The notes beneath the pieces are model-generated. The model worked only from the letters and a program-made list of their open reading frames with translations. It was not told the DNA's origin and made no database searches. From assembly GCF_009617975.1 (NCBI RefSeq), contig NZ_CP040089.1, positions 941,464-973,463 on the forward strand: DNA of 32,000 nt, read 5' to 3'. The position numbers and the translations under genes are program-made. How positions within the stretch are numbered: position 1 is the stretch's first letter; each line of letters begins with the position of its first letter. Origin of the DNA: Candidatus Nanohalobium constans. Its GTDB lineage: Archaea; Nanohalarchaeota; Nanosalinia; Nanosalinales; Nanosalinaceae. Below, in pieces: positions 1 through 27,659 of this stretch.

Positions 1-855
1 TGCAAATAATGCTGCACCCGCCAGGTATGTGAATGAATCACCCGGAAGCATTGAAGCCGGATAGTAATTGTACCTGAGGAAAGCTAAGGTCGTGGCACTT
101 AGTGAAAGTGCTATAACTGCTGCTTCAAACCTGTTATTCATTAAAGCAAATACGCCAACTGCAGCGGAAGTTACAAGAGTAAGAGTTGTTGATAATCCGT
201 TTGTCCCTGCCAGTATGTTAACAGCGTTAGTCACAAAGAAGAAGCCTCCAGGCATCAACACCAGTGGATAGATCAAGCCCCAGTTTACAGTATAAGAAGT
301 GAGCGGGACGGACATTGTCCATGAGCCTGCTCCTACAGCGATAAGCGGTAGAAGTGCCGGCAATACAAAGAGCATCTTTGGAACTTGGCTTAAACCCTCC
401 CTATGCATATCTTCAGAAGTTTCAGATTGACCCGTGACCACAGAAATTTTTTCATGTATTACCTGGTGAGGAAAGTCAATCTCAGCTACCTTCTGCCCCA
501 GATCAAGCGTAAACTCAGTGTCAGCTGTCTCCTCTCGTATAATACCTTCTATATCTATATGTATATCATCTATTAGACCTATCAACGCAATTATATTTAC
601 TGAGGTAAGTGCTGCTAAAAGCATTGTTATATCGGAATCTGTGCCTGTAACAGTTGTCAGCGCCATGTAGAGAGTTACAGAAAAAATAAAGCCGAAGAGG
701 ACCGGAAGACCGCCTGAAGTAGGTAGTTTTGGTCTCGTTTCTTTCTGCTGGTCTATACCGTATATCCCTGACGCCAGAAGATACTTCTTAGCGTAAGGAG
801 TGGCGATATAGACGGATGTGAACCCTGCTATCAATGAAAGCAGTAGTGCTATCAT
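1..855 (-). CDS. aglH: Dolichyl-phosphate HexNAc-1-phosphate transferase (AglH/Alg7, MraY-WecA superfamily). Partial: the C-terminal part lies beyond the left edge.
   Basis: Absent from the ORF track because it is edge-truncated. Hand translation of the minus strand from ATG 855-853 gives 285 sense codons down to nt 1: MIALLLSLIAGFTSVYIATPYAKKYLLASGIYGIDQQKETRPKLPTSGGLPVLFGF...NIIALIGLIDDIH...FFVTNAVNILAGTNGLSTT...YYPASMLPGDSFTYLAGAALFA. GLIDD, NxxNxxAGxNGL and xGDxxT/S motifs are family hallmarks. The start overlaps the aglB stop as ATGA (852-855). Confidence 0.85.
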   Translation of the reverse strand, partial: MIALLLSLIAGFTSVYIATPYAKKYLLASGIYGIDQQKETRPKLPTSGGLPVLFGFIFSVTLYMALTTVTGTDSDITMLLAALTSVNIIALIGLIDDIHIDIEGIIREETADTEFTLDLGQKVAEIDFPHQVIHEKISVVTGQSETSEDMHREGLSQVPKMLFVLPALLPLIAVGAGSWTMSVPLTSYTVNWGLIYPLVLMPGGFFFVTNAVNILAGTNGLSTTLTLVTSAAVGVFALMNNRFEAAVIALSLSATTLAFLRYNYYPASMLPGDSFTYLAGAALFA

Positions 856-3521
856 TCTGTGATTTCCCACATCTTGATGTAGCCATTTGAGGCTTCAGGA
901 ACCTTTTCAGCGTAGTCAACACCGCGCCCATCCTGCAGGTATAGCTTGACAAGTGTCGAATCTGTGATCTTCTCAGGAACTAGGATTAGCCGCGACTGCG
1001 TGCCTGCTGCACCCCTTTCCAAACTGTAGAAAGGATCTTCAACAGCACAGAATCCTAGGTCTCTTTCAACATCAAAGTCTTCTCTGCCGTCCTCTGTAAG
1101 CAGACAGCCTACTTCAGCAGTTTGACCATCTGCAAACCGGACAGTTGGCGGACCTGAAAGCCCTGCCGAGGAATTTGTAAACTCTACCGGAGCATAGATT
1201 GACACAGGGTCTCTGCCCAGCCTTCCTCGGAACTGAGCCACAGTCTGACCGTCTTCCTCGCTCAAAGAGCTTTGTAGCGCGCCAGGAGTACTGAACTGTG
1301 CCATAGCCTGGTAGTCTTGGTTATCCTTATTTGCTATCTGACTTACTGCTGAAAACTTGCCTATCATGCTGTGATCAAGCCAGATGTAATCAGCTGAGGT
1401 CTGCTCAAGATAGTCTGTGTCATTAGCGGTCGTCGAGTTAAGGTAGCTAGCTAACCTGTAGTTCATGTGATCTCCTTCACTTGTGTAGTATCTTAGGTTT
1501 CCTCCATCGGCTACAGATGCTCTGTTCCCTAATGTCTGGAAGTTGTAACCGTAGTCCCACCATGAAAGCACTACAGAACCATTCGGCGTCTCATCCTCCA
1601 TGTAGTCTAGGCTCTGTTCCCAGAGCTGAGGTGAAGGTGTTGGAGATCCTCTTATCCCTTGAGACATGCTGAAACCTGAGAAGAAGTTCATGCCTAAAAC
1701 CAGTGCCAGAACAAGCAGTAAACTTGCTGTTTTCAGATTATCTGAGTCTATATTATCTGACCAGTCGTAATCCAATGCTCTTAGCTTTGATATTACTATG
1801 TTTAAACCATGACCTGCGCCAAGAGCTACCGCAAATGTTGATAGGAATACGAGCCGTGATCTAGTTGTACCTCCGTAAAGATTGGAGCCTATCCATACTA
1901 GAGGTATGATCATGTACCATCTACAGGTTATTTCTCTTTCAGGGAAGTGGTCTAGGTAGTTGAGTATTGCCGATCCTGCTACTGCAGCTAAGGTAGGCCA
2001 TAGAGTCAGGTAGGCGAATGAAGTGAATAAACCGCCTGTAAATCTGAATGATGCTATTGACAGCCCTACTGCCGTTCCCAGAAGCATCAAAGTGGATATG
2101 CTGAACGCTGAGTCTTCATCTAGGAAATAGACTGTGGCTAGGATTGTAGCAGCCACTATTGCAGCTGCGAACGCCGAGATAAACACGAAGTTCAAGACCA
2201 GTCCAACCATGAATATTATTGTGGCTACGAAGACTGCCTGAGTATAGGCAATATGCTTTTTGCCCGGAATAACGTCACCGAAGACACCGTACTTCTTTCC
2301 AAGCATCATCATTAGGGCTGTTGATGTAGCGACGATTGAAACTATCATGAATGTCCAAGGACTTAGCAGCATGGAGAAAATTTCCAGTCCTGCCGGGACT
2401 CTACCAGCTAGCACCGATCCAAGGCTTGTTGCAAGGCTGTTTACTCCCGGTGCTGCATTTTCCTGTACTGTTTTACCTATAACGCTGTTACCTGTCTTTC
2501 CTAGTGCCAGACTGACAAGCCTTAGAATTTTGTCAGCGACCCATTGAGAGTAGATGGGTGAGAGTACTGCCATAAAGAACCCTAGGACACCCATCGAAGG
2601 CACGAAGTAAGGAAGATACTTTTCCTGGACTACTTCGAATTCTTCGACAAGGTATCTTAGCCATAGGAGTCCTAATGCTGCTGACGCTATAAGGAATAAA
2701 GAGTCTGTGAACCAGAACCTTCCTGGATTGGTGAATGCTGCGAAGAATCCTCCTATCAATACTGTTGGAGTGTATGCAGCTATAAGAGATCTTATTTCGA
2801 TGTTTAGGAACAGTGTGATACCTGTTAGTATCGGATATAGTAGCCAGAGCATTTGGCTGCCTCCCCAGCTGATTGTAAATATTCCTAGAGTTAGACCCGC
2901 CATTATGCCATTCTCCCAGCTTTCTCGTTTCCATGCTCTCGTGAAGAAAAGCAGTGAAGTAACCATCAGGAATGTTCCAAGCGGTTCTTTCTCGAAGAAT
3001 CCTGCCGAAGTTCTTCTAAGTGCTCCAGAGATAACTGCTAGGAAGAATGCTGCTGCAAGCCCCGTATTCTTGTTGAAGTGTTCCTTACCTAGGAAGTACA
3101 TTACCACTGTTGAAGCAGCTCCTAGAAGCGCTGGGTAGAACTGTGCCCATTCCAGGTAGTTCTCGAAGAACAGTGAGAACCCTAAATTGTACAGTACTGC
3201 AGGGACGATGAAGTCTCCTATCTGAAGCGAGTAAGTCGGTGCCGCGTATGGGAAATAACGCATGAAATCTACTTGTGGCATGGTGCCTTCGAGTGCGAGG
3301 TGTTGGCTCATGCGGAAGATGAAGTATGGATCAGCGGCTTGGAGGTACTGCATGCCTTTTTCCGGCATGTAGCGTAACATGAATGCAAGTAAAAATACGA
3401 GTGTTAGACCTCCTAAGTGCCAATTTTCCTTAAGCTTCGTTAGAATGGTTTCTCTATCTAAATTATCACTGTACTCTTTGACTTTGTTGGCTGGATCCAT
3501 CCTTGCATGGGTTTTATGCAT
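852..3521 (-). CDS. aglB: Archaeal oligosaccharyltransferase AglB (STT3 family)
   Basis: 889-aa ORF with a multi-TM N-terminal half and a soluble C-terminal domain. It carries the canonical WWDYGY motif (SVVLSWWDYGYNFQ). An alternative start at M8 (3500) fits an AT-rich box at 3527-3534 about 30 nt upstream. Confidence 0.95.
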   Translation of the reverse strand: MHKTHARMDPANKVKEYSDNLDRETILTKLKENWHLGGLTLVFLLAFMLRYMPEKGMQYLQAADPYFIFRMSQHLALEGTMPQVDFMRYFPYAAPTYSLQIGDFIVPAVLYNLGFSLFFENYLEWAQFYPALLGAASTVVMYFLGKEHFNKNTGLAAAFFLAVISGALRRTSAGFFEKEPLGTFLMVTSLLFFTRAWKRESWENGIMAGLTLGIFTISWGGSQMLWLLYPILTGITLFLNIEIRSLIAAYTPTVLIGGFFAAFTNPGRFWFTDSLFLIASAALGLLWLRYLVEEFEVVQEKYLPYFVPSMGVLGFFMAVLSPIYSQWVADKILRLVSLALGKTGNSVIGKTVQENAAPGVNSLATSLGSVLAGRVPAGLEIFSMLLSPWTFMIVSIVATSTALMMMLGKKYGVFGDVIPGKKHIAYTQAVFVATIIFMVGLVLNFVFISAFAAAIVAATILATVYFLDEDSAFSISTLMLLGTAVGLSIASFRFTGGLFTSFAYLTLWPTLAAVAGSAILNYLDHFPEREITCRWYMIIPLVWIGSNLYGGTTRSRLVFLSTFAVALGAGHGLNIVISKLRALDYDWSDNIDSDNLKTASLLLVLALVLGMNFFSGFSMSQGIRGSPTPSPQLWEQSLDYMEDETPNGSVVLSWWDYGYNFQTLGNRASVADGGNLRYYTSEGDHMNYRLASYLNSTTANDTDYLEQTSADYIWLDHSMIGKFSAVSQIANKDNQDYQAMAQFSTPGALQSSLSEEDGQTVAQFRGRLGRDPVSIYAPVEFTNSSAGLSGPPTVRFADGQTAEVGCLLTEDGREDFDVERDLGFCAVEDPFYSLERGAAGTQSRLILVPEKITDSTLVKLYLQDGRGVDYAEKVPEASNGYIKMWEITE

Positions 3522-8498: not shown

Positions 8499-8540
8499 GA
8501 GTGCAAGTATTTTTATCTGTCGTGTTTGTAATTTTGTGTT

Positions 8541-9542: not shown

Positions 9543-9579
9543 ACCTGTTTTATAATATATACGTGAGACAGTTTGGATT

Positions 9580-14896: not shown

Positions 14897-15284
14897 ATAC
14901 TTGCTTGACACATGGGCGTGGATAGAGTTCTACATCGGAAGCGAGAAAGGGAAAGAAATTTACCAGAAAATAGAGGAAGCGAAGTGTTACACCTCAATAG
15001 TATCCTTAGCGGAAATGTCTGACAATTACCAGTCAGGAAACCTAAAATCAGACAATAAATGGAGCGAAATTAGAGGCTTTGTAGAGTCTAAAACAGAAGT
15101 AGTGACTTTAACGCCCGAAATATGCGGAAATGCAGGAAAAATAAAACAGCAAGAAAGAGAAAAATTCTCAGACTTCGGACTAATGGATGCAATAATACTG
15201 TCAACCGCCAGAAAAAACGACCTAGAATTAATTACAGGAGACAAACACCTAAAAGATAAAGAAAGAGCAAAAAAGTTAGAATAA
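14889..15284 (+). CDS. PIN-domain toxin (VapC-like)
   Basis: Starting at MSEYLLDTWAWIEF, it has PIN acidic residues in LLDT, SLAE, MDAIIL and TGDKHL. The track ORF start (14763) is an upstream extension that overlaps the antitoxin. Confidence 0.8.
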   Translation: MSEYLLDTWAWIEFYIGSEKGKEIYQKIEEAKCYTSIVSLAEMSDNYQSGNLKSDNKWSEIRGFVESKTEVVTLTPEICGNAGKIKQQEREKFSDFGLMDAIILSTARKNDLELITGDKHLKDKERAKKLE

Positions 15285-16187: not shown

Positions 16188-17156
16188 TTAGAATGTTCCC
16201 GAAGCCATCAAAGGAACTTTAGACCCTGCTGCCGCAATAGGAACGGCCATGTACCCCAATTTTCTCAATTTATCCATAATCTCCTTGTCGTCTTTGTTTT
16301 GGGCTCTTCCTGCTCTTTCTTTGGTGTTTTCTACATCTTGTAGCCATGCAGGGATTTCATCGCTTTTGTCTGTGGATACTTCGCTTCCTAGGCTTCTGAA
16401 TCCTGCCCAGTACTTTGGTGAAATCGGTACATCGTCTTTGTTGAGTCCTTCCGGCAGATCTTCTTCTGTTTCCGGGTAGCTGTTGATTTCTACTCCTGTG
16501 ATGTCTGGCACCATGTGGAACCAGGATACATCCCATACATCTCTTTCGTCTAGTTGTAGGATGGGGTGTACTCTGATGTGGTCTGGGTCGCTTCTTGGAC
16601 TGTAGAAGTCTTCGTCACCTCTACTTTCGTGTTCGTCCCATCTTACTCCGTTGATCACTGCTTCAATATTGTGGTTTTCAAGCAGTTCGTGCATTGGAAC
16701 TGTTTTGAGAAGGTGGTTTCCTGCTTCTGTATCCATGAGCCATGGTACTTCTTCGTAGTCTCCTACTTCTTCAGCTGCTTCCTGATTTCTGTCGTTGAGT
16801 TCTGCCACAGGTACTTTGTCTCCTGGTTGGTCTGCTTTTTCTATTAGGTCTTCGTTTTTGGCCGTCATTACTTCGAATCCCCAGTTGTCGGCTAGTCTTT
16901 CGACATAGTCTTCGAGTTCGTCGAAGTGTTGTCCGTGGTCTACGAACATGAACTTGGGTTTGTCGAAGCCGTGTTCTTCGCAGACTCTTTTGACAAGCCA
17001 TGCTGTCAGTGTGGAGTCTTTCCCCCCTGTGAATCCGATTACTACATTGTCGGTGTCGTATTCTTCTAGTGCTTGTTTGACGACTTCTTCTCCTGCTCTG
17101 ATTTTAGCTTTTATCGGTGCGTTCTCAATTTCGTCTCGTGTTACAGGTGCTTCCAT
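16188..17156 (-). CDS. PP-loop ATP pyrophosphatase of the PAPS-reductase/CysD family (CysD-like)
   Basis: PP-loop GFTGGKDST. NGVRWDEHESRGDEDFYSPR and IRVHPILQLDERDVWD resemble CysD (GARRDEEKSRAKERxxSFR, RVFPLSNWTExDIW). ERAGRAQNKDDKEIMDKLRKLGYM resembles the CysD C-terminus (ERxGR..DRD...GYF). It has no CysH-type ECG[IL]H motif. ATG 17156 is preferred over TTG 17168. Confidence 0.8.
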   Translation of the reverse strand: MEAPVTRDEIENAPIKAKIRAGEEVVKQALEEYDTDNVVIGFTGGKDSTLTAWLVKRVCEEHGFDKPKFMFVDHGQHFDELEDYVERLADNWGFEVMTAKNEDLIEKADQPGDKVPVAELNDRNQEAAEEVGDYEEVPWLMDTEAGNHLLKTVPMHELLENHNIEAVINGVRWDEHESRGDEDFYSPRSDPDHIRVHPILQLDERDVWDVSWFHMVPDITGVEINSYPETEEDLPEGLNKDDVPISPKYWAGFRSLGSEVSTDKSDEIPAWLQDVENTKERAGRAQNKDDKEIMDKLRKLGYMAVPIAAAGSKVPLMASGTF

Positions 17157-17174
17157 AGATAGTATCAACTCTGT

Positions 17175-17440: not shown

Positions 17441-18997
17441 ATGGGAGATGCCGATCAAAAAGCATTGAACGCACTGGCAAAGGGTGCTGGCGTGACTGCG
17501 ATAGGGATGGGTATTTCCAAGGTATTGACTTATCTTTACCGGGTTTCAATTGCCCGTTTTGTTGGTCCTGAGGCGTACGGTCAGTTGTCAACTGCTTTGA
17601 TGGTTGTCGGTATTGCAAGCACTGTCGCCTACCTGGCTCTGGGCTCAGGTTTGAAGAAGTTTATACCAGAATTCAGAAGTAGAGATGATTTTGCAAGTAT
17701 TAAGGGCATAGTTATCAGTGCACTCCAGTTAACCGTTCCTGTATCTATAATCATTTTCCTGGCAGTGTTCTTCGGAGCAGAGTTCATCGCTGTAACTATT
17801 TTTGAAAACCCGAAACTAGTTCCTCTCATAAAGATTCTATCGTTCACTATACCTGCAGGAACCCTTTCCAGACTCTTCTTCGATACAACACTGGGATTCA
17901 ACAAGATAATTTACAAGACCGGGACAGTCAGGATATTTCAAAACATTGTTCAGCTTGGGACAACCCTGATACTTCTTTTAATGGGTTTTAAAGTAGTGAG
18001 TGCTGCTTATGGCTGGTTACTGGGAACCGTAGTTGCTGCCATTCTCGGTTTCTACTTTATGGAGAAAAAAGTAGGTCCAATACTTTTCTCCAAGACTAAA
18101 CCCTCCTATCACCGAAAAAAGCTGCTCAGATTTTCCACCCCACTGCTACTCTCAGGAATAATAGGAACACTGCTCGGCTGGGCAGACACAGGACTGCTAC
18201 AATACTTCATGGAAGACCTTGAAGTAGGACTGTACAACGCAGCCCTGCCTACCGCCATACTGATACTTCTGCCTCACAAAGCAATTGGAAGCCTGGCAAT
18301 CACTTCATTCTCCGAGCTAAAGGAAAGAGACAAAGAAAGCGTAGAGAGCTCCATACAAAGAGCCACATACTGGGTTTTCTCACTTGTATTCCCTACCTTC
18401 CTCATAATGCTCCTATTCTCAGACAAAATACTGCAAATACTCTGGGGATCAGAATACACACAAGCCTCAATAGCACTCTCAATTCTAGCAACAGGATACC
18501 TAATAGACGCCCTAGTAGGCAGAGTAGGAAGCCTCCTCCAATCAGAAGGACACACAAAATACATACTATACAACAACACAGCAGCACTAACACTCAACAT
18601 CATACTCAACATCATACTAATACCTCCATACGGAATAGCTGGAGCAGCAATCGCCACAGCAACCTCCACCATACTAACCAACGTATTAATGTACATCGAA
18701 GTCCGGAAAAAAGAAGGAATAAACAGCATACCCCACAAAAAAATCTCAAAAATAGTACTAACCGGACTAATACCACTATCAATCATAATAACACTAGACA
18801 CAATACTCTTCACAAACACACCATACTGGTTCCTGATCCCAGCAGGAACAACCTACATTACAACCTACATCCTCCTATTCCTCAAAACAATAGGACTTGG
18901 AGAAGAAGAAAAAGAAGTATTTCTCAGGATAGGAGAGATCACAGGAACAAAAGATAAGGTTAAAAAAATACTGGCAACCATAGAGAGAAGAATTTAA
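17441..18997 (+). CDS. Oligosaccharide flippase, MOP/Wzx family (AglR-like)
   Basis: 518 aa with about 14 TM segments, the polysaccharide-biosynthesis-protein architecture and the glycosylation context. A TTTAAA box lies about 28 nt upstream. Confidence 0.8.
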   Translation: MGDADQKALNALAKGAGVTAIGMGISKVLTYLYRVSIARFVGPEAYGQLSTALMVVGIASTVAYLALGSGLKKFIPEFRSRDDFASIKGIVISALQLTVPVSIIIFLAVFFGAEFIAVTIFENPKLVPLIKILSFTIPAGTLSRLFFDTTLGFNKIIYKTGTVRIFQNIVQLGTTLILLLMGFKVVSAAYGWLLGTVVAAILGFYFMEKKVGPILFSKTKPSYHRKKLLRFSTPLLLSGIIGTLLGWADTGLLQYFMEDLEVGLYNAALPTAILILLPHKAIGSLAITSFSELKERDKESVESSIQRATYWVFSLVFPTFLIMLLFSDKILQILWGSEYTQASIALSILATGYLIDALVGRVGSLLQSEGHTKYILYNNTAALTLNIILNIILIPPYGIAGAAIATATSTILTNVLMYIEVRKKEGINSIPHKKISKIVLTGLIPLSIIITLDTILFTNTPYWFLIPAGTTYITTYILLFLKTIGLGEEEKEVFLRIGEITGTKDKVKKILATIERRI

Positions 18998-19722
18998 TCC
19001 CTTAAATCATACTCTCTGTTGGCTTCTCTCAGTCTTTCTGGAGTTCCAACATCTATTCGTGAACCTTGGATTTCATCATATCCCACTTTGTAACCATTTT
19101 CTCTCATCAAGTCTATTGCGTCGGTTAATTGGTACTCATCGCCTTTACCCTTCTCTATATTATCTATAGCCTCGAAGATTTGAGGTCCGAAGACATACAT
19201 ACCTGAGATACACAGATCAGAAGGTGCTTCATCAGCAGACGGCTTCTCAACCATTCCCTCCACCAAGTTATCATCTCCAGGTTCTAGGACGCCATAAGAA
19301 GTCACATCATCTGGCTTGAAAGCTCCGATGGTTGCGTCCATGCTGTTGTGTTTGTGGAACTTGACCAGCTCATTCATAGCCTTCTTATCATCAACATAGT
19401 TGTCTCCCAGAACCACTGCAAAATGTTCATCATTGATTACATGTTCTCCAGCTTTTACTGCTCCAGCTAGACCATTTCTGTCATCCTGAACCACATAAGT
19501 CAACTGTACGCCGTAATCATCACCAGATCCTAAGTAGTCTAGGATTGCGTGCTGTTTCCAGCCAACCACAATTACAATTTCTTCAATACCTGCTTCCTTC
19601 ATATCCTCAATACAGTGTTCGATCACTGCTTTTTCCCCTACAGGAAGAAGTTCCTTCGGATAAGCGTTCGTGAACGGCTCCATTCTAGTGCCTTTCCCAG
19701 CTGCCGGAATCAATCCTTTCAT
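18994..19722 (-). CDS. Sugar-1-phosphate nucleotidyltransferase (glucose-1-P uridylyl/thymidylyltransferase, AglF-like)
   Basis: MKGLIPAAGKGTRMEPFTNAYPKELLPV is the canonical G-x-G-T-R NTP-transferase N-terminus; 242 aa. It is divergent from the UDP-glucose dehydrogenase gene. Confidence 0.88.
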   Translation of the reverse strand: MKGLIPAAGKGTRMEPFTNAYPKELLPVGEKAVIEHCIEDMKEAGIEEIVIVVGWKQHAILDYLGSGDDYGVQLTYVVQDDRNGLAGAVKAGEHVINDEHFAVVLGDNYVDDKKAMNELVKFHKHNSMDATIGAFKPDDVTSYGVLEPGDDNLVEGMVEKPSADEAPSDLCISGMYVFGPQIFEAIDNIEKGKGDEYQLTDAIDLMRENGYKVGYDEIQGSRIDVGTPERLREANREYDLRD

Positions 19723-19747
19723 GATAATACCACATATTACCGATATC

Positions 19748-19753
19748 TTTTAT
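19748..19753. promoter_or_regulatory. Central AT-rich box (TTTTAT) of the divergent aglF-like / ugd pair
   Basis: The centre is 28.5 nt from ATG 19722 (minus strand) and 26.5 nt from ATG 19777 (plus strand), within a 54-bp intergenic region. Confidence 0.4.
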
Positions 19754-19776
19754 CCTTATCTCGGCAAACAAAAAGT

Positions 19777-21072
19777 ATGCACATCTCAGTCGTAGGAACA
19801 GGCTATGTCGGTTTGCCGGCAGGAACAGGATTGGCATCCAGAGGAAACCAAGTCACATGTATAGATATAGACGAAGAAAAAGTAGAGAAGATCAACAATG
19901 GAGACTGTCCAATCTACGAAGAAGATCTTCCAGAATTACTTGAAGAGATGGTTTCTCAAGGAAAACTTTCTGCTACTACAAACACTGCTGAAGCTGTAGC
20001 CGACTCAGATATTACTTTTCTGGCTGTCGGAACGCCGATGAACAATGATGGAAGCATAAATCTAGAGTATATTAAACAGGCTGCTGAAGACGCAGCAGAA
20101 GGAATAAAGGAAAAAGACGGATACCACGTATTCGTCGTTAAATCTACTGTAGTTCCTACAACGACCGAAGAAGAAATAATCCCTATACTAGAAGTAGTTT
20201 CCGGCAAAAAAGCCGGTGAAGACTTCGGGGTATGCATGAACCCGGAATTCCTGAGAGAAGGAACCGCACTAAACGACTTCCTAGAACCAGACAGAATAGT
20301 AATCGGCGAACTAGATGAGAAATCCGGAGACACACTGGAGAAAGTATACTCGGAATTTGATGCACCAATTATGAGAACTTCTCTGAAGGCGGCCGAACTG
20401 ATTAAATATGCTTCCAACTCTCTGCTAGCAACTAAAATTTCATTTATCAACGAGATCGGCAACCTGTGTAAAGAACTTGGTATAGATGTCTACGAAGTAG
20501 CAGACGGAGTTGGAATGGATCACAGAGTCAAAAGAGACTTCCTAGACTCGGGGGCCGGCTTCGGCGGGAGTTGTTTCCCAAAAGATGTGAGAGCACTTGC
20601 TTCATTTATGGAAGATCAAGGAGAAGAACCACGTATACTTGAAGATACAATCTCCGTCAACGAAGACCAGAAAACCAAACTAGTCGAACAGCTCGAAGAC
20701 CACTACCCTGACCTCTCAGGAAAGAAGATCGCAGTATTAGGCCTCTCATTTAAGCCTGGGACTGATGATATCAGACAAAGTCCAGCAATCGATATCATCT
20801 CAGAACTGAAAGAACTCGGAGCACAAATCAAGGCCTATGATCCAAAAGCGATCGAAAACATGAAAGAAAAACATCCGGATGTAGAATACACCTCCAGCTA
20901 CGAAGAAGCTCTGGAAGATACAGACGCAGGTCTCATAGTAACAGACTGGGACGAATTCAACGCCATCGATCGTGGAGACCTACAGACCATGAACAAAGCC
21001 TTACTGCTTGAAGGTCGCAGAATGAGCTACGATGTAGATGAAGAAAACAGAGAGGGTATTACATGGCCATGA
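19777..21072 (+). CDS. ugd: UDP-glucose 6-dehydrogenase (AglM/Ugd-like)
   Basis: MHISVVGTGYVGLPAG NAD-binding motif and catalytic GFGGSCFPKD motif; 431 aa from ATG 19777. The track start at 19549 is an extension that is antisense to the neighbouring gene. Confidence 0.92.
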   Translation: MHISVVGTGYVGLPAGTGLASRGNQVTCIDIDEEKVEKINNGDCPIYEEDLPELLEEMVSQGKLSATTNTAEAVADSDITFLAVGTPMNNDGSINLEYIKQAAEDAAEGIKEKDGYHVFVVKSTVVPTTTEEEIIPILEVVSGKKAGEDFGVCMNPEFLREGTALNDFLEPDRIVIGELDEKSGDTLEKVYSEFDAPIMRTSLKAAELIKYASNSLLATKISFINEIGNLCKELGIDVYEVADGVGMDHRVKRDFLDSGAGFGGSCFPKDVRALASFMEDQGEEPRILEDTISVNEDQKTKLVEQLEDHYPDLSGKKIAVLGLSFKPGTDDIRQSPAIDIISELKELGAQIKAYDPKAIENMKEKHPDVEYTSSYEEALEDTDAGLIVTDWDEFNAIDRGDLQTMNKALLLEGRRMSYDVDEENREGITWP

Positions 21073-21926
21073 GCGAAAACTCTGTACTAGTAATCGCTTT
21101 TGACGGTCTTGACAAAGAACTGATAGAGGAGTTTGATTTAGAGCATGTGAAGCAGGAAGAATACGGCTCTATAGATAACAAGACTGGAATGTCAAGTATA
21201 AAGACTTCAGAACTATTTGCTTCTTTCATAACCGGCAAAACAAGAGAAGAACACGGGATAAAAGGTTTAAAGAAAGAAGAACACTGGCTTCCTTCTTTAA
21301 TACCAAGCAAAGTCGCTCAAAAAGTTAGAGGCGGATATACTGTTAAACAGATTTTAAGAGATATTGCCAAACAAGGCGATAGACAATTCGATAAAAGAGA
21401 TCTAGAGGGCGATAGCATATTCGAAGAAATAGAGAATTCTAAAGCCATGTACGTTCCTGGATATAACCCAAGTCCATTCTGGACTAAACACGGAACAGGA
21501 AGAGATCTCAGAGACTTAAGCATGGAGAAAAGGCCTTGGGGTTACTTTTGGGACGCACATGAACATACCAGACGAAAGAACGAGATTTTTAGACCAGTGA
21601 ATAAATGGCACGACTTCCTGATGGTTCATATATTCAGGCCTGACATGCATCAGCACTGTTATGGAGATCCTAATTTATCGACTTACGATGAAAATAAACT
21701 GGAAGAGTTATACAAAGATACAGATGACCTAGCCGAGGAAATCTTAGAATACTTCTCCGAAGACTACGATACAATTATTTTTATGTCCGATCATGGTTTG
21801 CCTACGGAGAATGGGCATAACGAAAATGCTTTCTACAGTTCCAATAGAGAGTTATTTGGAGAGGAAGTTCCTAAGATTACGGACTTCTATGATAAGATCT
21901 TGGAGATTCAGGACGCTAGGTTATAG
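21063..21926 (+). CDS. Alkaline-phosphatase-superfamily protein, nucleotide pyrophosphatase/phosphodiesterase (NPP)-like, soluble
   Basis: VLVIAFDGLD (metal-site Asp strand), IKTSELFASFITGKTREEHG (aligns with the NPP TxPxHxSxxTGxxPxxHG motif, with Thr kept) and IIFMSDHG. A second ATG at 21069 forms ATGA with the ugd stop. Confidence 0.65.
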   Translation: MAMSENSVLVIAFDGLDKELIEEFDLEHVKQEEYGSIDNKTGMSSIKTSELFASFITGKTREEHGIKGLKKEEHWLPSLIPSKVAQKVRGGYTVKQILRDIAKQGDRQFDKRDLEGDSIFEEIENSKAMYVPGYNPSPFWTKHGTGRDLRDLSMEKRPWGYFWDAHEHTRRKNEIFRPVNKWHDFLMVHIFRPDMHQHCYGDPNLSTYDENKLEELYKDTDDLAEEILEYFSEDYDTIIFMSDHGLPTENGHNENAFYSSNRELFGEEVPKITDFYDKILEIQDARL

Positions 21927-23103
21927 TTTTTCTGAAGCTCTCCTCTATAACCTCAATATTTTTGGCAATATCATAGTCCTCAACTATTTTTCTTCGAGCC
22001 TCTCCACCCATTTCCTCTCTTGTCTCTTTTGACTGTATAAGTTTGGAGAGTTTCTCGCTTAGTACTTCAGGGTTCTTTGGCTCTGCCAAGAGACCATCTT
22101 TTCCGTCTTCTATCAGTTCCGGTATGGCTGATACAGTGGTTGATACAGAAGGTGTTTCTAAAGCCATTGCTTCTTTGAGAACCATCGGCATAGCGTCGAG
22201 ATCACCGCTCTCTGCTTCTACGCATGGGAGGATGAAGGCCTTTGCTTCTTCTATCTGTTTCTTTAGTTCTTGGTCGGAGATATAGCCCATGAAGTTGATA
22301 TCCTCTCTTACTCCAAGCTCCTCCGATAGTTGTTTGAGTTCGTTTTCGAGTTCTCCCTCTCCAATAATAGTGTACTCGAGTTCTGGATAGTCTTCTTTCA
22401 ACTCTGCGAAGGCCTTTATTCCATATTTGAATCCTTTTTTCTCTACAAGCCGGCCTACAGAGACTATCTTGTTTTTCTCTTTAAGGCCTTTAGGTTCGAA
22501 CTTTTCAGGTCTTATAGATACGGGCACTATATCAATAGATTTTTCAAGCGAGAATTCTTCTCTGAGATAGTTTCTGTTGTACTCTGAAACTGTGACTATC
22601 TTTTGAGGATATCGTAGTAATTTGCTGCCTTGTTCTTTTCTTCCCTTCTTGAATATATCTGCGGCGTGTACCTCAATAACCCAAGGTACAGAATAAATCG
22701 AAGAAAGGTGTTCTACAGAATATTTATTGTTATGGGCAAAATGAGTCATTAAAATGTCTGGATCATAATCTGAGCCATCCAAAATTTTGCTCATCTGTTT
22801 GGTACGATAGAGATTCTTTATCTTCTCTTTAATCATCGTTTCCGTTTTTGGCAAGCTAACTAGCGCCTTTACATCTTTTTTAGTTGTAGGTAGAGCTTTA
22901 TAGATACTCTTCTTTCTTATAGAATCTATATAATGAACTTCTGCTGCTATGTTAGACAGTTCATCGTGTTCAATATCCTCTTCGGGATTATTGAAGGCAA
23001 TAATTTTTATCCGATGACCTCTCTTCTCTAACTGATAAATTTCATTTAGAATAAAGGTCTCTGAAACTTTTGGGAAGTTACCGAGAATATATAGTATCTT
23101 CAT
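21916..23103 (-). CDS. Glycosyltransferase family 4 (GT-B, Glycos_transf_1)
   Basis: The C-terminal EAESGDLDAMPMVLKEAMALETPSVSTTVSAIPELIEDGKDGLL is the E-x7-E retaining GT4 signature; 395 aa. Confidence 0.9.
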   Translation of the reverse strand: MKILYILGNFPKVSETFILNEIYQLEKRGHRIKIIAFNNPEEDIEHDELSNIAAEVHYIDSIRKKSIYKALPTTKKDVKALVSLPKTETMIKEKIKNLYRTKQMSKILDGSDYDPDILMTHFAHNNKYSVEHLSSIYSVPWVIEVHAADIFKKGRKEQGSKLLRYPQKIVTVSEYNRNYLREEFSLEKSIDIVPVSIRPEKFEPKGLKEKNKIVSVGRLVEKKGFKYGIKAFAELKEDYPELEYTIIGEGELENELKQLSEELGVREDINFMGYISDQELKKQIEEAKAFILPCVEAESGDLDAMPMVLKEAMALETPSVSTTVSAIPELIEDGKDGLLAEPKNPEVLSEKLSKLIQSKETREEMGGEARRKIVEDYDIAKNIEVIEESFRKTIT

Positions 23104-23927
23104 TTTTTCAAACCTTTAATTTTCTCAATTGTTCTTTCAATAGTTTCTTTTATACCATACCACTTTAGCGCGGAATATAGTTTATCCCAAGACCTTGGGT
23201 TGATTTTTTTGATTTTTAGATTATTTCTTTTGAGATAATGGACTCTTGAACTTGTTTTATTGTTGAGTTGTTTTTGAGCTTTTTCTGGCATTACTGTGAA
23301 TCTGTACCCTATTGTATCAAATTTGTCTAGTCTTCCGTGTAGTATTTTTGCCTCGTTGTAGAGGTATCCTGGTATTCCGAATCTGCAGTTGTATTCAGAG
23401 GGTATTGTTGTAAAGTCTACATCGGAGTAATATAGGGCTTTCCTGAATACTGGTTGGTCTCTGTGGCTTTCGTATGACCGGTCTTCATATAGTTCTTTCC
23501 AGTCATCGAAGAGCTGTTGAACGTCGTCCGTCTTACGGTAGCTTATCACTCCCGTATTTAGTTCCGAAAATGTTGGTGGAACATCCTCCATCTCTTCTGA
23601 TGCTCTCTGAGGCGCTCTTCTAATCGCTAGCTCAAATTGATTTAGCACATCAAAGAGTTCATTGATCTCGTCTACTACATAGGTGTCAGTATCAAGGTAT
23701 AGTGTTCTATCATAAGGTGTTTTTTCCAATAAGTAAATCTTATCGCTTCCTTTCCCGGGATCATCAACAACTATATTTTCATCAATAAAGTCATACTGCT
23801 TCTCTTCTAAAGTTATTAGAGTTATAGGCACATCATTTGTCTTTTTCAGCTGCTTAGCTGATTTTTCAAATTCTCTAAAGTAGTTTTCTTCAGTGACTAT
23901 ATAGACAACTCCTTCTGAATCTTTCAT
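23100..23927 (-). CDS. GT-A nucleotide-diphospho-sugar transferase, GT8-like
   Basis: YDRTLYLDTDTYVVDEINELF (DxD) and LNTGVISYRK resemble GT8. It has no TM segment; 275 aa. Confidence 0.6.
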   Translation of the reverse strand: MKDSEGVVYIVTEENYFREFEKSAKQLKKTNDVPITLITLEEKQYDFIDENIVVDDPGKGSDKIYLLEKTPYDRTLYLDTDTYVVDEINELFDVLNQFELAIRRAPQRASEEMEDVPPTFSELNTGVISYRKTDDVQQLFDDWKELYEDRSYESHRDQPVFRKALYYSDVDFTTIPSEYNCRFGIPGYLYNEAKILHGRLDKFDTIGYRFTVMPEKAQKQLNNKTSSRVHYLKRNNLKIKKINPRSWDKLYSALKWYGIKETIERTIEKIKGLKK

Positions 23928-23932
23928 TTTTA

Positions 23933-25258
23933 CTATTCAACTCTCCATTCATACAGTACTTTTGCTTTGCTTTTCAATTCAGTGGCTTTATCCAGATCCA
24001 TTTTTTCGTTTTCTGTTAAGACCTCTGATTTCCAGACGTATTCACCTTCTGTGGTTAGGTCATATTTTATTTCTGAATTAATTAAAGAGAAGCTTTTGCG
24101 GTTGTAGATTTGTTCGCATCCTTCCGGTATTTTTCTTCCAAATTGTTGGACGAACCCTTTTCTGCCGAAGTATTCTGAGTTAAGTATTTCCCGGGATTCT
24201 ACCTCGCTGTCTTGAATGAGGCCGTGAATTATGTCTATCATTTCTGTGTGGCTGTAGAGACCTCTTTCATCAATCTCCAAGTCTAGTTCTCTACCTTTGC
24301 TGAAGATGATGCAAGGTACTTCTACGAGTTCTTTGTAGGTGCCGAGGTGGTGGCCTATTAGCTTGGTTCCTTGCTTTTCGTATTCTCCTATCAGTTCTCC
24401 ATGATCACCAAGAACAATGAAGACTGTATTCTCTGGAGCTTCTCTGTAGAAGTTTCTTATTTTTCTGTCGGCATATCTTATCGAGGCCTTGTATGCTTTC
24501 TGTCGTATATCGAGCTTGGTGTCCGAGAATCCTTCCGGCAGGTAATCTTCGAGGACCTTAGTCTGTGAGGCGTCTAGTACCTCTTCTTCAGAATAATCGG
24601 ATAGATATGACTCCCTGTCTTCTTCGTCAAATGTGTAAGGCGAGTGTACCGGCATGATGTTGGCGAATACGAATTCATCTTTCTCGGATTTGAGTTTCTT
24701 GTTCGCTTCTTCTAGAGTTCTTACTGTTTTCCCCGAGTTGTGGTCTGCTTCTCTTGAGGTGAACTTATCGGTTATGTGTCGGAAGAAACTTTTAGCTGAA
24801 TCAATATCTCGTTTCTTTATAGTCTTCTTGAAGAAGTAGCTGTATTTTTCTTTTCTGCCGGAGAATTCGTCGTCTTTCTGCCAGATCTCTTTCCAAGTAT
24901 CTCCTCCGAGGTCTTCAGTTGTCTGTACAAACTGCTGGAATCCCTCGCTGAACCCTGTTTCCTCTGTTATCAAATGGTTCTCTGTGAAGGCAGAGGTACT
25001 AAATCCTTTTGACACAAGCATCGATGTCAACATGTTCTCTTCGCTGAAATAGGTGTTTTCTGTCGTTGTTCCATGTTCTGAGGATAGCTTCCCTGAGAAA
25101 AGTGATGCGTGCGCTGGCACAGTCCAGGGAGAGTTAGCGTAGTAGTTTTCCAAATGAAGACCTTCTTCCGATTTCTCAGATAGGAATGGAGCTATCGAAT
25201 TATCTTTTACAAAATCTTTCTTTCTCCAGGTATCGACAACTAAGAGAACTATATTCAT
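23933..25258 (-). CDS. Sulfatase-fold alkaline-phosphatase-superfamily protein with Thr nucleophile motif (phosphodiesterase/phosphotransferase-like, not a formylglycine sulfatase)
   Basis: NIVLLVVDTWR, NSPWTVPAHASLFSGKLSSEHG (TxPxH...G....EHG as in NPP-type enzymes, with no C/S-x-P-x-R motif) and FIVLGDHGELIGE; 441 aa with no TM segment. Confidence 0.7.
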   Translation of the reverse strand: MNIVLLVVDTWRKKDFVKDNSIAPFLSEKSEEGLHLENYYANSPWTVPAHASLFSGKLSSEHGTTTENTYFSEENMLTSMLVSKGFSTSAFTENHLITEETGFSEGFQQFVQTTEDLGGDTWKEIWQKDDEFSGRKEKYSYFFKKTIKKRDIDSAKSFFRHITDKFTSREADHNSGKTVRTLEEANKKLKSEKDEFVFANIMPVHSPYTFDEEDRESYLSDYSEEEVLDASQTKVLEDYLPEGFSDTKLDIRQKAYKASIRYADRKIRNFYREAPENTVFIVLGDHGELIGEYEKQGTKLIGHHLGTYKELVEVPCIIFSKGRELDLEIDERGLYSHTEMIDIIHGLIQDSEVESREILNSEYFGRKGFVQQFGRKIPEGCEQIYNRKSFSLINSEIKYDLTTEGEYVWKSEVLTENEKMDLDKATELKSKAKVLYEWRVE

Positions 25259-26175
25259 TTGAAAACCCTTTTGACCTTCACAGCTATATTTATGAGATCT
25301 TTACCTGTCAGTCTCCTGAAAAGATATAGAACAAATAAAGCATAAGCCTCTAGCTCTAGAGAGTTATTTCTGATAGTTTTAGACAAGTGTTTTTCAGTTC
25401 CTCTGTTATCTCTCAGAGTGTACTGTTTCTTGGCTCTGTTAAGGTGGTGCCGGGCCTTTACTTTTGATCCGGCTTTTTCTAGTAGATCTGAGTGTTTTTC
25501 TGTTATCTTTTCTCGTCCTTCTGTTGCTACGTCCACCTGGCTGCTTTTGGAGTCGTCGCTTTGATGATAACGAACTAGAGGTTCATTGATATAGCCGAAC
25601 TCTGCTTCGTTTTCTATCAGTCTTATCCATAGGTCCCAGTCTTCTCCACTTGGAATATCTTCATCAAAACCGTTTATTTCTTCTAGAACCTCTTTCTTAA
25701 CTGAAACTTTGGAGGGCGAACCTATTTTGTCTCTTTCAAGTATCTGTTCAAGACCTAGCTTTTCTTCCTTCCTTACGATATCTTGAACCTCTCCGTCTCT
25801 GTACGCCTCTATAGCTGAGTATACTGCATCGTAATTGTTTTGCTTGAAATCTTCTGCTTCTTTCTCTAGCTTTTCTGGTTTCCATTCATCATCGTCATCT
25901 AGGAAAGCAATATATTTTCCAGAAGCATTTTGTATGCCGAGGTTTCTGGCAGATGAAACACCTTGCGCATTGTCGTTAATGTGTCTTTCCAGGTCAATAT
26001 CCTTGTCAAGACTTTCAACTATCTCTTTAACCTTCTCTTTATCTTCTTGTTCAGGATTGTCATCTACCACTATCAGCTCAAAGTCGGTGTAGGTCTGTGA
26101 TATAATACTTTCAAGAGCTCTCTCCAGCTTTTCATCTCTCTTATAGGTTGGAACTATTACGGAGAACTTAATCAT
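25255..26175 (-). CDS. Glycosyltransferase family 2 (GT-A)
   Basis: FSVIVPTYKRDEKLERALESIISQTYTDFELIVVDDNP and FLDDDDEW (DxD). ATG 26175 is preferred over GTG 26184. Confidence 0.9.
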   Translation of the reverse strand: MIKFSVIVPTYKRDEKLERALESIISQTYTDFELIVVDDNPEQEDKEKVKEIVESLDKDIDLERHINDNAQGVSSARNLGIQNASGKYIAFLDDDDEWKPEKLEKEAEDFKQNNYDAVYSAIEAYRDGEVQDIVRKEEKLGLEQILERDKIGSPSKVSVKKEVLEEINGFDEDIPSGEDWDLWIRLIENEAEFGYINEPLVRYHQSDDSKSSQVDVATEGREKITEKHSDLLEKAGSKVKARHHLNRAKKQYTLRDNRGTEKHLSKTIRNNSLELEAYALFVLYLFRRLTGKDLINIAVKVKRVFK

Positions 26176-27013
26176 CAACCGCACCTTTCACTTCTAACCA
26201 AGGCACTTCAACAAGTTCTTTTTCTTTTCTTCCTATGCTGTGGCCCCATCCTCCTTCTCCTAGTAGTTCTCCGTGGTCTGATGTGACTATTATTTTGCCT
26301 TCTAGTTGTTCTACTAGTTTTTCTACTTGTTCTAAGGCTAGCCTGAGGTCTTCTGTGTAGTATTGTTTGACTTGTTCTTCGCCTTGTTCTCTGGCTAGTT
26401 TTTCGTAGTTGTTTCCTAGCCCCAGTATTTCCTTAACTTTGGTCTGGAATCTGTAAGGTGTTAATTCGAATAAAGGGTTCCAGATCGGCCTTGTTGTATC
26501 CAGTATTTTCCTCAGTGTTGATTCTTCTTCGTCTTCTAGTTTGTTTTTTGGCGCCCAGTCGAAGTCTGTTTCTCCTAGTGAGATGAACGGTCTGTGTGGC
26601 TGTATGAAGTGTATTATCGTCTTTGAACCATCTAGGTTTTCTTCAGCTGTCTTCCTGAAGTCTTCTGGTCTTACTGTGTTTATTTCTTCGTCCCAGTCGT
26701 GTATCCAGGAGTCGACTATGTTCGTGAATTTGTCGGCTGCACTCCAGTCCCGGTCTTGACCGCTGACAAGATCTCCCAGTGACAGACCTTGGCCGTTGAT
26801 GTATGGGTTGGCGGAGATGTAGTTGTAGTTATATCTTCTGCCGTCGAAAGTGTTCCACAGCCATTCTGGTGTTGCGGAGCCTCTACTCTTGACTTTCTTC
26901 AGGTCGCCCTCTAGAAAGCCCTCATAGTTGTCTCTGAAGTAGTCGTATCTACATGCGTCTAGGATGATGAGGTAGTCCCAGTCTGTTCCGTGGATGTCTT
27001 GTTTCTGCGTCAT
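26168..27013 (-). CDS. Alkaline-phosphatase-superfamily protein (sulfatase/NPP-like), soluble
   Basis: From MTQKQDIHGTDWDYLIILDACRYDYF: SATPEWLWNTFDG (T-x5-N-x3-G) and IIVTSDHGELLGEGGWGHS. ATG 27013 forms ATGA with the PIN stop. The track start at 27136 is an extension across the PIN gene. Confidence 0.6.
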   Translation of the reverse strand: MTQKQDIHGTDWDYLIILDACRYDYFRDNYEGFLEGDLKKVKSRGSATPEWLWNTFDGRRYNYNYISANPYINGQGLSLGDLVSGQDRDWSAADKFTNIVDSWIHDWDEEINTVRPEDFRKTAEENLDGSKTIIHFIQPHRPFISLGETDFDWAPKNKLEDEEESTLRKILDTTRPIWNPLFELTPYRFQTKVKEILGLGNNYEKLAREQGEEQVKQYYTEDLRLALEQVEKLVEQLEGKIIVTSDHGELLGEGGWGHSIGRKEKELVEVPWLEVKGAVDD

Positions 27014-27420
27014 TCTTGTCCTCTCAATTCTAAGAATTTTTGTGGCTTTACTATTGTTATATTTTCGTATTCTTTTAGTTCTAGTAGGTCCGAGTCTCCG
27101 GAAATTATGTAGTCTGCATTGGCGGATACTGCGCATTCGAGAAATTTGTTGTCTTCAGGATCTTGTGATTTATCTATAGACTCTTCTGAACTGATGAATA
27201 GGAATTCAGATACCAGTATTTCCAGGAACTTTTGCTGCTCTTTTTCCGAAAAGTCAAACTTGTCGTATTCCAGGACTTCTGATACCTCATCAATCATTGA
27301 CTGTGTGGCAAAAGCATCTATTTCTTCTCCGAGAGCTAGTTCTAGGCATTCTTCTGGTTTGGCGTCCCAACCAATAGCTGAAATCAAGACATTTGTGTCT
27401 AAAACTACTTTCTCGCCCAT
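27010..27420 (-). CDS. PIN-domain toxin (PIN_3/TIGR00305-like)
   Basis: VVLDTNVLISAI...DPEDNKFLECAVSANADYIISGDSDLLEL is the characteristic family pattern; 136 aa. Confidence 0.85.
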   Translation of the reverse strand: MGEKVVLDTNVLISAIGWDAKPEECLELALGEEIDAFATQSMIDEVSEVLEYDKFDFSEKEQQKFLEILVSEFLFISSEESIDKSQDPEDNKFLECAVSANADYIISGDSDLLELKEYENITIVKPQKFLELRGQE

Positions 27421-27659
27421 TCTATCGCGTCCTCAATCTCTTCTTTCTCTAAACCTTCTTCCTGGAATCTTTCCTGGACTTTGTTGCTCAGTTTCTCATA
27501 CTCCTCTTTAACATCAAAGCTGATTTTCTTGAACATCACACCATCTTCAACCTGGACTGCTATGAAGCGATCAGAAGGGCTGAAATCAGCCTTGTCACGG
27601 ATATCCTTAGGTACAACGAGCTGACCCTTGGGCGACATCTTCACTATATCCTCACTCAT
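27405..27659 (-). CDS. AbrB/MazE/SpoVT-type antitoxin
   Basis: MSPKGQLVVPKDIRDKADF is a swapped-hairpin motif; 84 aa. It overlaps the PIN start by 16 nt. Its promoter region has a palindromic operator. Confidence 0.8.
   Translation of the reverse strand: MSEDIVKMSPKGQLVVPKDIRDKADFSPSDRFIAVQVEDGVMFKKISFDVKEEYEKLSNKVQERFQEEGLEKEEIEDAIEWARK

Follow-up and report, generated by a model that had tools for sequence, protein, structure and literature searches.

Analysis of a 32,000-nucleotide stretch of the genome of Candidatus Nanohalobium constans (hereafter the window) indicated that its glycan-assembly island encodes three soluble proteins of the alkaline phosphatase (AP) superfamily, designated A, B and C, each of which carries a conserved threonine at the position of the catalytic nucleophile. 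The three proteins are proposed to be cytoplasmic tailoring enzymes of the lipid-linked glycan, most likely acting in the O-sulfation of sugars, and we give this reading a probability of roughly 0.45. The proposal draws on the conserved residues of the proteins, their lack of transmembrane (TM) segments and signal peptides, the overlaps between genes, the conserved neighbourhood, the genetics of Halobacterium salinarum, peptides deduced from published primers for its genes, the profile matches of B and the association with a gene of the 3'-phosphoadenosine 5'-phosphosulfate (PAPS) reductase family. The proteins have already been annotated as AP-superfamily members, and proteins of this kind have a functional precedent in an archaeal agl cluster; the interest of the locus lies in the chemistry, in a clean signature of threonine and metal site in small soluble proteins, in the size of the C family and in the recurring link to the PAPS-reductase-family gene.

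Threonine and metal site in three soluble proteins

All three open reading frames (ORFs) were found where the first-pass annotation had placed them, and its assignment of the products to the AP superfamily was borne out for A by the Pfam Phosphodiest model, for B by the Pfam Sulfatase model and for C by its fold together with a profile comparison that related it to B with 97% probability. The metal-binding aspartate (D14 in A, D9 in B and D19 in C) and the C-terminal DHG motif, both part of that annotation, are invariant in all three families. Hidden Markov model searches, structure prediction and profile comparison, which had been proposed as a check, upheld threonine at the nucleophile position and indicated that the metal-site residues are largely retained; the threonine was located in A and B by alignment with ENPP4 and with sulfatases, respectively, and in C by conservation, and the models of A and C place it at the start of the helix that follows the second strand, the arrangement typical of the superfamily. 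The formylglycine motif of true sulfatases, C/S-x-P-x-R, is indeed absent, all three proteins having threonine instead. The longer pattern T-x-P-x-H...S-G...E-H-G that had been ascribed to the three proteins is complete in B and present in part in A (T...S..TG....EHG), and in C it does not extend beyond T-P. As annotated, no TM segment was detected in A, B or C (the maximal 19-residue Kyte-Doolittle mean was below 0.8 for each), and none has a signal peptide. An N-terminal multi-pass membrane domain of the type found in phosphoethanolamine (PEtN) transferases and LtaS is not present in B or C, which open directly with the catalytic strand. Judged from their sequences, the metal sites appear intact and the enzymes soluble and embedded in a glycan-assembly operon. 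The structural part of the first-pass reading was thus borne out, whereas its functional proposals gained no support from the computed results. Since the catalytic residues are intact and strongly conserved in all three families, A, B and C are predicted to be active enzymes.

ORF A is 100% identical to the deposited protein QGA81056.1 ('type I phosphodiesterase/nucleotide pyrophosphatase') and scored 37.9 bits on Pfam Phosphodiest (PF01663), for which the cut-off is 23. Alignment of 35 sequences of the A family revealed that D14, T48 (codon 21204-21206), D194, H198, D243, H244 and H252 are invariant. The family profile matched the nucleotide pyrophosphatase/phosphodiesterase (NPP) ENPP4 at 4.9e-8, T48 falling on the nucleophile threonine of KTFPNH, D194 and H198 on EPDASGH and D243 and H244 on SDHG. 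The proline and histidine found at +2 and +4 of the NPP nucleophile motif are replaced in A (T-S-E-L-F). The third, distal histidine of NPP metal site 1 is without an aligned equivalent and would fall past the C-terminus of A; the invariant H252 may substitute for it. In the AlphaFold model (predicted local distance difference test score, pLDDT, 90.6) D14 follows strand E8-13 and T48 opens helix H48-57, and Foldseek searches with this model returned ENPP1, Xac NPP and ENPP4 at E-values of about 4e-7 and TM-scores of about 0.45-0.5, the structural matches including NPP3 bound to UDP-N-acetylglucosamine (UDP-GlcNAc). The secreted or ecto-enzyme topology typical of NPPs was not found in A, which has neither a hydrophobic N-terminus nor a TM segment. 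Single-sequence searches of A and of C against the PDB sequences gave nothing meaningful, and profiles and predicted structures were needed. Since comparison of the A profile with those of B and C gave low-probability matches only, at the motifs, A is taken to form a branch of its own within the superfamily and not to be a paralogue of B or C.

ORF B matches the deposited QGA81059.1 ('sulfatase-like hydrolase/transferase') exactly and reached 89.6 bits on Pfam Sulfatase (PF00884; cut-off 25). Alignment of 21 family members showed that D9, T46 (codon 25121-25123), P48, H50, H205, D285, H286 and H303 are invariant. T46 aligned with the formylglycine Cys/Ser of the solved sulfatases 5g2v and 9koq and H50 with their arginine, so that the place of the formylglycine motif is taken by T46-V-P-A-H50, with threonine and histidine unchanged in all 21 members. 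The B family profile matched many solved sulfatases, the best being 9koq (1.3e-21). D9, T46, H205, D285, H286 and H303 form a site of the PEtN-transferase/LtaS type (threonine, Asp/Glu, Asp-His and two more histidines), and D19, T48, H140, D246, H247 and H258 make up the corresponding site of C.

ORF C is 100% identical to QGA81061.1, a 'hypothetical protein', and gave only sub-threshold Sulfatase and PglZ matches on Pfam. The start of the gene was placed at 27013 because of an ATGA overlap with the upstream gene and the N-termini of homologues. Alignment of 40 family sequences showed that D19, R22, T48 (codon 26870-26872), H135, H140, D246, H247 and H258 are invariant. Among the best 150 representatives, which share less than 50% mutual identity, position 48 is threonine in 147 and serine in two, and D19, H135, H140, D246/H247 and H258 are conserved beside it. 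The AlphaFold model (pLDDT 91.0) places D19 after strand E14-18 and T48 at the opening of helix H48-55. Foldseek ranked the catalytic domains of MCR-1, MCR-2, EptA and EptC on top and sulfatases next, with TM-scores of 0.41-0.52, and in the soluble domain of EptA (4kav) the DHGE...H segment of C was aligned to DHGESLGENGMYLH, with sequence E-values above 0.01. When 1.84 billion representative proteins were searched with its profile, the C family was found to comprise at least 1656 clusters (50% identity) at E<=1e-30, all of 265-340 residues. Members of the family are not all tied to clusters of Wzx and glycosyltransferase (GT) genes: in a Halodesulfurarchaeum locus (L085, 8001-9990) the C-family gene adjoins a gene for an LPG_synthase_TM membrane protein, outside any obvious glycan cluster.

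Gene order and its recurrence in glycan clusters

The glycan genes of the island span about 10.7 kb to 29.4 kb of the window (Table 1). After the AglB/STT3 gene come sugar epimerases/dehydratases and a formyltransferase, then the PAPS-reductase-family gene, the Wzx-type flippase, the nucleotidyltransferase, the UDP-glucose dehydrogenase (UGDH) and A. The minus-strand operon is tightly packed in the order [AbrB-like/PIN pair]-C-GT2-B-GT8-like-GT4, with the PssD/Alg14-like GT gene and a second GT8-like gene further upstream. Overlaps of the ATGA type join the PIN stop to the start of C, the GT2 stop to the start of B, the GT8-like gene to the GT4-type gene and the UGDH stop to the second ATG of A, and the stop of C overlaps the ATG of GT2 (ATGATTAA), which probably starts at 26175. 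The start/stop overlaps at A, B and C constitute translational coupling. The coupling of two AP genes to GT genes noted in the first-pass annotation thus holds for B and C, both of which overlap GT2; A instead overlaps the UGDH stop codon. The mechanically called UGDH ORF (19549-21072, plus strand) is over-extended at its 5' end and runs into the divergent nucleotidyltransferase gene. Since the Pfam domain begins only at residue 77 of that ORF, the ATG at 19777 (MHISVVGTGYVG) was taken as the real start.

Table 1. Positions of A, B and C and of the genes around them in the window
Feature	Position	Strand	Remarks
AglB/STT3 oligosaccharyltransferase	852..3521	-	Pfam STT3, 4e-19; far end of the island
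PAPS-reductase-family PP-loop protein	16188..17168	-	QGA81051.1; FTGGKDS motif; Pfam PAPS_reduct, 5.5e-22
Wzx/MurJ-type oligosaccharide flippase	17441..18997	+	Pfam Polysacc_synt, MurJ
Sugar-1-phosphate nucleotidyltransferase	18994..19722	-	Pfam NTP_transferase, 2.6e-45
UDP-glucose/GDP-mannose 6-dehydrogenase (UGDH)	19777..21072	+	Pfam, three domains; stop codon overlaps the start of A
ORF A, soluble NPP-like AP-superfamily enzyme	21063..21926	+	287 aa; 285 aa from the second ATG at 21069
GT4-type (Glycos_transf_1) glycosyltransferase	21916..23103	-	Pfam, 2.8e-40; last gene of the minus-strand operon, convergent with A
GT8-like nucleotide-sugar transferase	23100..23927	-	Weak Pfam Glyco_transf_8 and Nucleotid_trans matches; 5 nt downstream of B
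ORF B, soluble 'sulfatase-like hydrolase/transferase'	23933..25258	-	441 aa; Thr replaces formylglycine
GT2 glycosyltransferase between C and B	25255..26184	-	Pfam Glycos_transf_2, 1.7e-33; overlaps both
ORF C, soluble compact AP-superfamily protein	26168..27013	-	281 aa; no Pfam model for the family
PIN-domain toxin and AbrB/SpoVT-like antitoxin pair	27010-27659	-	Inserted at the head of the C-GT2-B operon
PssD/Alg14-like glycosyltransferase	27806-28624	-	Upstream of C, same orientation
GT8-like glycosyltransferase	28621-29355	-	Upstream of C, same orientation

Comparison with other loci (numbered L001 onwards) revealed that the C-GT2-B order is kept in the nanohaloarchaeal loci L001, L002 and L003 and the C-GT2 order in Methanohalarchaeum (L084). 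Other nanohaloarchaea also retain the unit of UGDH, AP-like and GT4 genes, together with the Wzx, nucleotidyltransferase and PAPS-reductase-family genes. The slot between UGDH and GT4 is occupied in one genome (L002/L003) by a C-like gene and not by an A-like one, which suggests that the AP-like genes are tailoring modules able to replace one another. The pair of PssD/Alg14-like and GT8-like genes upstream of C recurs in L001 and L002, and Wzx genes adjoin B-, C- or A-like genes in L005, L008, L011, L030, L049 and L084. Sets of two to seven A-, B- or C-like paralogues beside Wzx and GT genes were found in Halomicrococcus (Wzx-C-A-GT4-B-...-C-GT4-GT4-GT2), Haloferax namakaokahaiae (GT2-Wzx-B-C-C-B-...-GT4-GT4), Halorubrum and Methanohalarchaeum, the last with four C-like genes and Wzx, GT2 and GT4 genes. 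A search of one-genome-per-species GTDB contigs with the B-type motif [SA][PS]WT[VA]P[AS]HA[ST] and GDHGE patterns returned 600 or more stretches, and 402 were confirmed as relatives, giving a W-T-x-P-x-H clade of at least 402 members spread over many Halobacteria, Thermoplasmata and bacterial phyla. In L001, from a related nanohaloarchaeon, a further gene of Sulfatase/SGSH_C type (17599-18840) lies between the genes for NeuB, a nonulosonic acid synthase, and a WbqC-like protein; since it adjoins NeuB, AP-fold genes appear to accompany sialic-acid-like sugar pathways too.

Analysis of IMG/VR contigs showed C-like genes in 31 loci and B-like genes on essentially none. On two of these putative viral contigs (L098, 3015-9019, and L113, 224-6128) a module was observed that consists of GT2/GT4, radical-SAM/SPASM, C-like, A-like and PAPS_reduct genes, and in L113 it adjoins an anaerobic ribonucleotide reductase. 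A preprint on nanohaloarchaeal viruses describes sulfatase- and AP-superfamily genes beside GTs in the virus DNTV-1.

The PAPS-reductase-family protein of the window reached 75 bits on the CysD model, whose cut-off is 195, and 47 bits on that of PAPS reductase (cut-off 154); its nearest solved relative is CysD 1zun (2.9e-6). It is without the C-terminal ECGLH-type motif, which together with the far sub-cut-off scores rules the gene out as a true CysD or CysH and as proof of sulfate activation. The gene lies 3.9 kb from A. In another nanohaloarchaeon a PAPS_reduct gene abuts a weakly A-like ORF (L049, 7213-9028), and a canonical PAPS_reduct gene was found within 4.3 kb in four of the 31 IMG/VR loci bearing C-like genes. 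In L098 (5962-7991) and L113 (574-3291) it is an immediate neighbour of A-like and C-like genes or lies between them, in the company of GT and radical-SAM/SPASM genes, and on contig L100 (2540-6747) it lies near an A-/C-like gene. A functional pairing of the PAPS_reduct and A-/C-like genes is suggestive only. The association would fit a nucleotide-activated donor, either adenosine 5'-phosphosulfate (APS) or PAPS or an ADP-linked phospho-compound, and it is possible that the protein is the partner that makes this donor.

Several other features of the region were observed. The position of the PIN/AbrB pair is occupied in L001 by a PIN_3 gene with a small upstream ORF, and no such gene is present there in L002. 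An ORF for a VapC-like PIN toxin (14763-15284) and a helix-turn-helix (HTH)/LAGLIDADG-like ORF (15299-16147) occupy a mid-island stretch of low GC content (37%); this PIN/HTH stretch hints at mobile or addiction elements and at plasticity of the island. Strand composition is strongly biased at positions 8001-10000 (GC skew +0.31 to +0.33, AT skew as low as -0.45), in the AI-2E transporter gene and the first part of a lamin-tail-domain gene.

The Halobacterium salinarum precedent and the group proposed to be transferred

The closest experimental precedent, which the first-pass annotation left unmentioned, is the AglB cluster of H. salinarum, which contains three AP-superfamily proteins, VNG1056C (Agl30), VNG1057C (Agl31) and VNG1063H, of which Agl30 is membrane-bound, Agl31 is soluble and VNG1063H is LtaS-like by BLAST (Zaretsky et al., mBio 2025; PMC11980604). 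Deletion of VNG1056C or VNG1057C abolished the sulfation of iduronic/glucuronic acid in the tetrasaccharide linked to dolichyl phosphate (DolP), and expression of either gene in Haloferax volcanii led to sulfation of the host glycan; the sulfation donor and mechanism were not addressed (PMC11980604). The Agl30 and Agl31 steps have been assigned to the cytoplasmic face, before flipping (PMC12624080). AP-like core proteins encoded in an AglB-linked N-glycosylation cluster, as defined in that system (PMC11980604), are likewise found in the window.

The H. salinarum trio was compared with A, B and C through short peptides translated from the primers in Table 1 of PMC11980604, with internal reading frames assumed. 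The quantitative PCR (qPCR) primer for VNG1063H encodes VHYFQPH, and 274 of the 286 C-family sequences contain the corresponding motif H[YFW]xQPH, whereas none of 3086 other ORFs does (173 B-like, 135 A-like and 2778 unrelated). According to the cloning primers, the C-termini read HLEDLGYL in Agl30 and LEELGYT in Agl31; an LGY tail closes 78 of 126 B-like ORFs from outside the nanohaloarchaea, as against 6 of 2778 unrelated ORFs, and the haloarchaeal B-like ORFs with this tail include endings such as RLEDLGYL and QLEELGYL. The tail L-[EDA]-[EDS]-L-G-Y-[LAITR] was observed in B-like and some C-/A-like proteins outside the nanohaloarchaea (loci L010-L083) and is absent from A, B and C of the window, where the PAPS-reductase-family protein has KLRKLGYM about 20 residues before its end. 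In one frame the Agl30 qPCR primer encodes TLDTWI, comparable to VVDTWR in B. The published BLAST scores are compatible with a B-like size for VNG1057C and a C-like size for VNG1063H, and the structures matched by the B profile, 6hhm and 5g2t/5g2u, are the sulfatases named as structural neighbours of Agl31 and Agl30 (PMC11980604). By the primer peptides, then, VNG1063H would fit the C family and Agl30 and Agl31 the B-like clade. In exact primer searches for the Halobacterium genes, the VNG1057C start primer had no match in the genome contigs, and the VNG1057C qPCR reverse and VNG1056C qPCR forward primers had none in the metagenome contigs; the Halobacterium species representative probably does not carry an NRC-1-type cluster. 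For Agl7 (HVO_2046) of Hfx. volcanii, a contributor to the sulfation of DolP-hexose, no protein family was found stated in the literature searched, and the N. constans genome paper contains nothing on sulfate activation, dolichol or the A, B and C genes.

Because of the Agl30/Agl31 precedent, sulfate is regarded as the most probable modification. A, B and C would be metal-dependent group-transfer enzymes that act on the oligosaccharide made by the neighbouring GTs, before its export by the Wzx-type flippase and its attachment by AglB, and the candidate targets of sulfation are hexuronic acids derived from the adjacent UDP-glucose dehydrogenase. The metal-activated threonine would attack a nucleotide-activated anionic donor, APS or PAPS and less likely a phospho-alcohol donor; the resulting covalent Thr-O-SO3 (or Thr-O-PO2-OR) intermediate would then be passed to a sugar hydroxyl, in a ping-pong scheme like that of EptA and LtaS, Thr-type transferases of the AP fold. 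The analysis shows the fold, the conservation of the catalytic residues, the solubility, the operon structure and the recurrence of the gene set in glycan clusters; which group is transferred, from what donor and to what acceptor, is inferred.

A number of observations weigh against sulfation. To our knowledge, no AP-fold enzyme with a threonine nucleophile has been biochemically shown to be a sulfate transferase, and the Thr+His sites of B and C resemble those of phosphoryl-transfer enzymes (EptA, LtaS, NPP) and differ from sulfatase sites, which combine formylglycine with Lys/Arg. A bona fide gene for sulfate activation was not identified. The score of the PAPS_reduct protein lies far below the CysD and CysH cut-offs; moreover, this protein is more conserved than A, B and C (it falls in a cluster of at least 90% identity) and may be a housekeeping gene product. 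The link to Agl30, Agl31 and VNG1063H, including the nucleophile residue, comes through short peptides read in assumed frames, and deletion of VNG1063H, an apparent member of the C family, gave no sulfation phenotype (PMC11980604). A bolder form of the proposal, which we regard as doubtful, is that A, B, C and their families represent a new mechanistic class of sulfotransferase in which a metal-activated threonine on an AP fold forms a covalent sulfo-enzyme from APS or PAPS and the PAPS-reductase-family PP-loop protein supplies or handles the donor. Such a class would have no relation to the canonical PAPS-binding sulfotransferase fold; the families themselves are widespread, with members in archaea, in bacteria and on putative viral contigs.

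A serious rival, already put forward in the first-pass annotation and to which we allow a real if minor chance, is the transfer of a phospho-substituent: a soluble nucleotide-linked donor would give up a phospho-alcohol or sugar-phosphate to the threonine, which would pass it to the lipid-linked glycan, making the enzymes cytoplasmic, soluble counterparts of EptA, LtaS or OpgB. The structural proximity of C to the catalytic domains of MCR-1, EptA and EptC and the alignment of its DHGE...H segment with EptA point this way, as do the constellation of Thr, Asp, Asp-His and two His present in B and C and the apparent NPP-type two-metal site of A, and an adenylyltransferase of the PAPS_reduct/FAD-synthetase type could supply an ADP-linked donor. 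However, short of an exhaustive literature search, we know of no phosphate-containing substituent on an archaeal N-glycan, whereas sulfate is well documented in halophiles. The characterised Thr-type transferases of the AP fold all use membrane phospholipid donors by way of a TM domain that is absent here, and the only experimentally tested AP-fold proteins of an archaeal agl cluster affect sulfation. A third and less likely possibility, above all for A, is that the proteins are hydrolases that serve the pathway without modifying the glycan; A could then be a pyrophosphatase or phosphodiesterase of nucleotide sugars, APS/PAPS or by-products, and B and C could be esterases that strip the lipid-linked glycan of a transient group. 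That A passes the Pfam NPP model, has nucleotide pyrophosphatases as its best structural matches, among them NPP3 with UDP-GlcNAc, and is coupled to UDP-glucose dehydrogenase and not to a GT would agree with such a role, and transient methylation of the H. salinarum lipid-linked glycan is on record (PMC11980604). Against it, the C-like gene in the slot of A in L002/L003 argues for interchangeable tailoring modules, two to seven paralogues per cluster exceed the need for a housekeeping hydrolase, and the wasting of activated sugars would make little sense for an energy-limited symbiont.

Catabolic sulfatases or phosphatases that scavenge nutrients and lie in the island by chance are what the database names 'arylsulfatase A family' and 'alkaline phosphatase family' would suggest; the lack of a C/S-x-P-x-R motif and of a signal peptide, the overlap of start and stop codons with biosynthetic genes and the synteny with GTs and a flippase kept across phyla make this very improbable. 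Least credible is the conversion of intermediates linked to dolichyl pyrophosphate (Dol-PP) into DolP-linked ones, the second idea of the first-pass annotation, for which the general pyrophosphatase ancestry of A and the PssD/Alg14-like GT of the operon, of a type with PP-linked acceptors in other systems, could be adduced. The phosphate to be lost from Dol-P-P-sugar is internal, and hydrolysis frees the sugar and does not shorten the linker; the known polyprenyl-PP phosphatases are integral membrane proteins that act after glycan transfer. Since the target phosphate is internal and A, B and C are soluble and cytoplasmic, such trimming is hardly to be expected, and the ORFs scanned in the window included no AglH-type gene.

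Significance and comparison with known systems

Archaeal glycan sulfation was first tied to genes in 2025, and these genes encode AP-fold proteins and not classical sulfotransferases. At the present locus, three such proteins from a cultivated symbiont are small and soluble, and their threonine and metal site are clearly conserved; A, B and C should be easily expressed, mutated and assayed, so that sulfate and phosphate transfer could be told apart directly. VNG1063H, still without a function, probably belongs to the C family, which numbers thousands of members and has no model in Pfam. Since the surface glycan of nanohaloarchaea faces both host and viruses, its tailoring steps are relevant to the symbiosis.

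Compared with the type I formylglycine sulfatases (PF00884, SulfAtlas S1), B passes the Pfam model and shares profile matches with them but differs in having T-V-P-A-H throughout its family, in not being secreted and in its biosynthetic gene context. The NPPs (Xac NPP, ENPP1, ENPP4) resemble A in passing PF01663 and in the residues T48, D194-x3-H198 and D243-H244 that align with the catalytic residues of ENPP4, whereas A is intracellular and about 100 residues shorter. EptA, MCR-1, EptC and LtaS share with C, of which they are the top structural matches, the Thr nucleophile, an acidic plus Asp-His metal site and two further histidines. Enzymes of the EptA/LtaS type transfer groups onto glycoconjugates through a covalent Thr intermediate; unlike them, the window proteins have no N-terminal TM domain, are cytoplasmic and not periplasmic or extracellular, and stand alone at about 280-440 residues. 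In the H. salinarum system, as in the window, three AP-superfamily genes lie in the AglB-linked glycan cluster of an extreme halophile, Agl31 is soluble, cytoplasmic and of about the same size as B, and hexuronic acids are involved (three glucuronic acid residues in H. salinarum, a UGDH gene in the window). The two systems differ in that Agl30 is membrane-bound while all three window proteins are soluble, in that the NPP-like member represented by A is not reported for the H. salinarum trio, and in that Agl30 and Agl31 end in the L-[ED]-[ED]-LGY tail while the window proteins do not.

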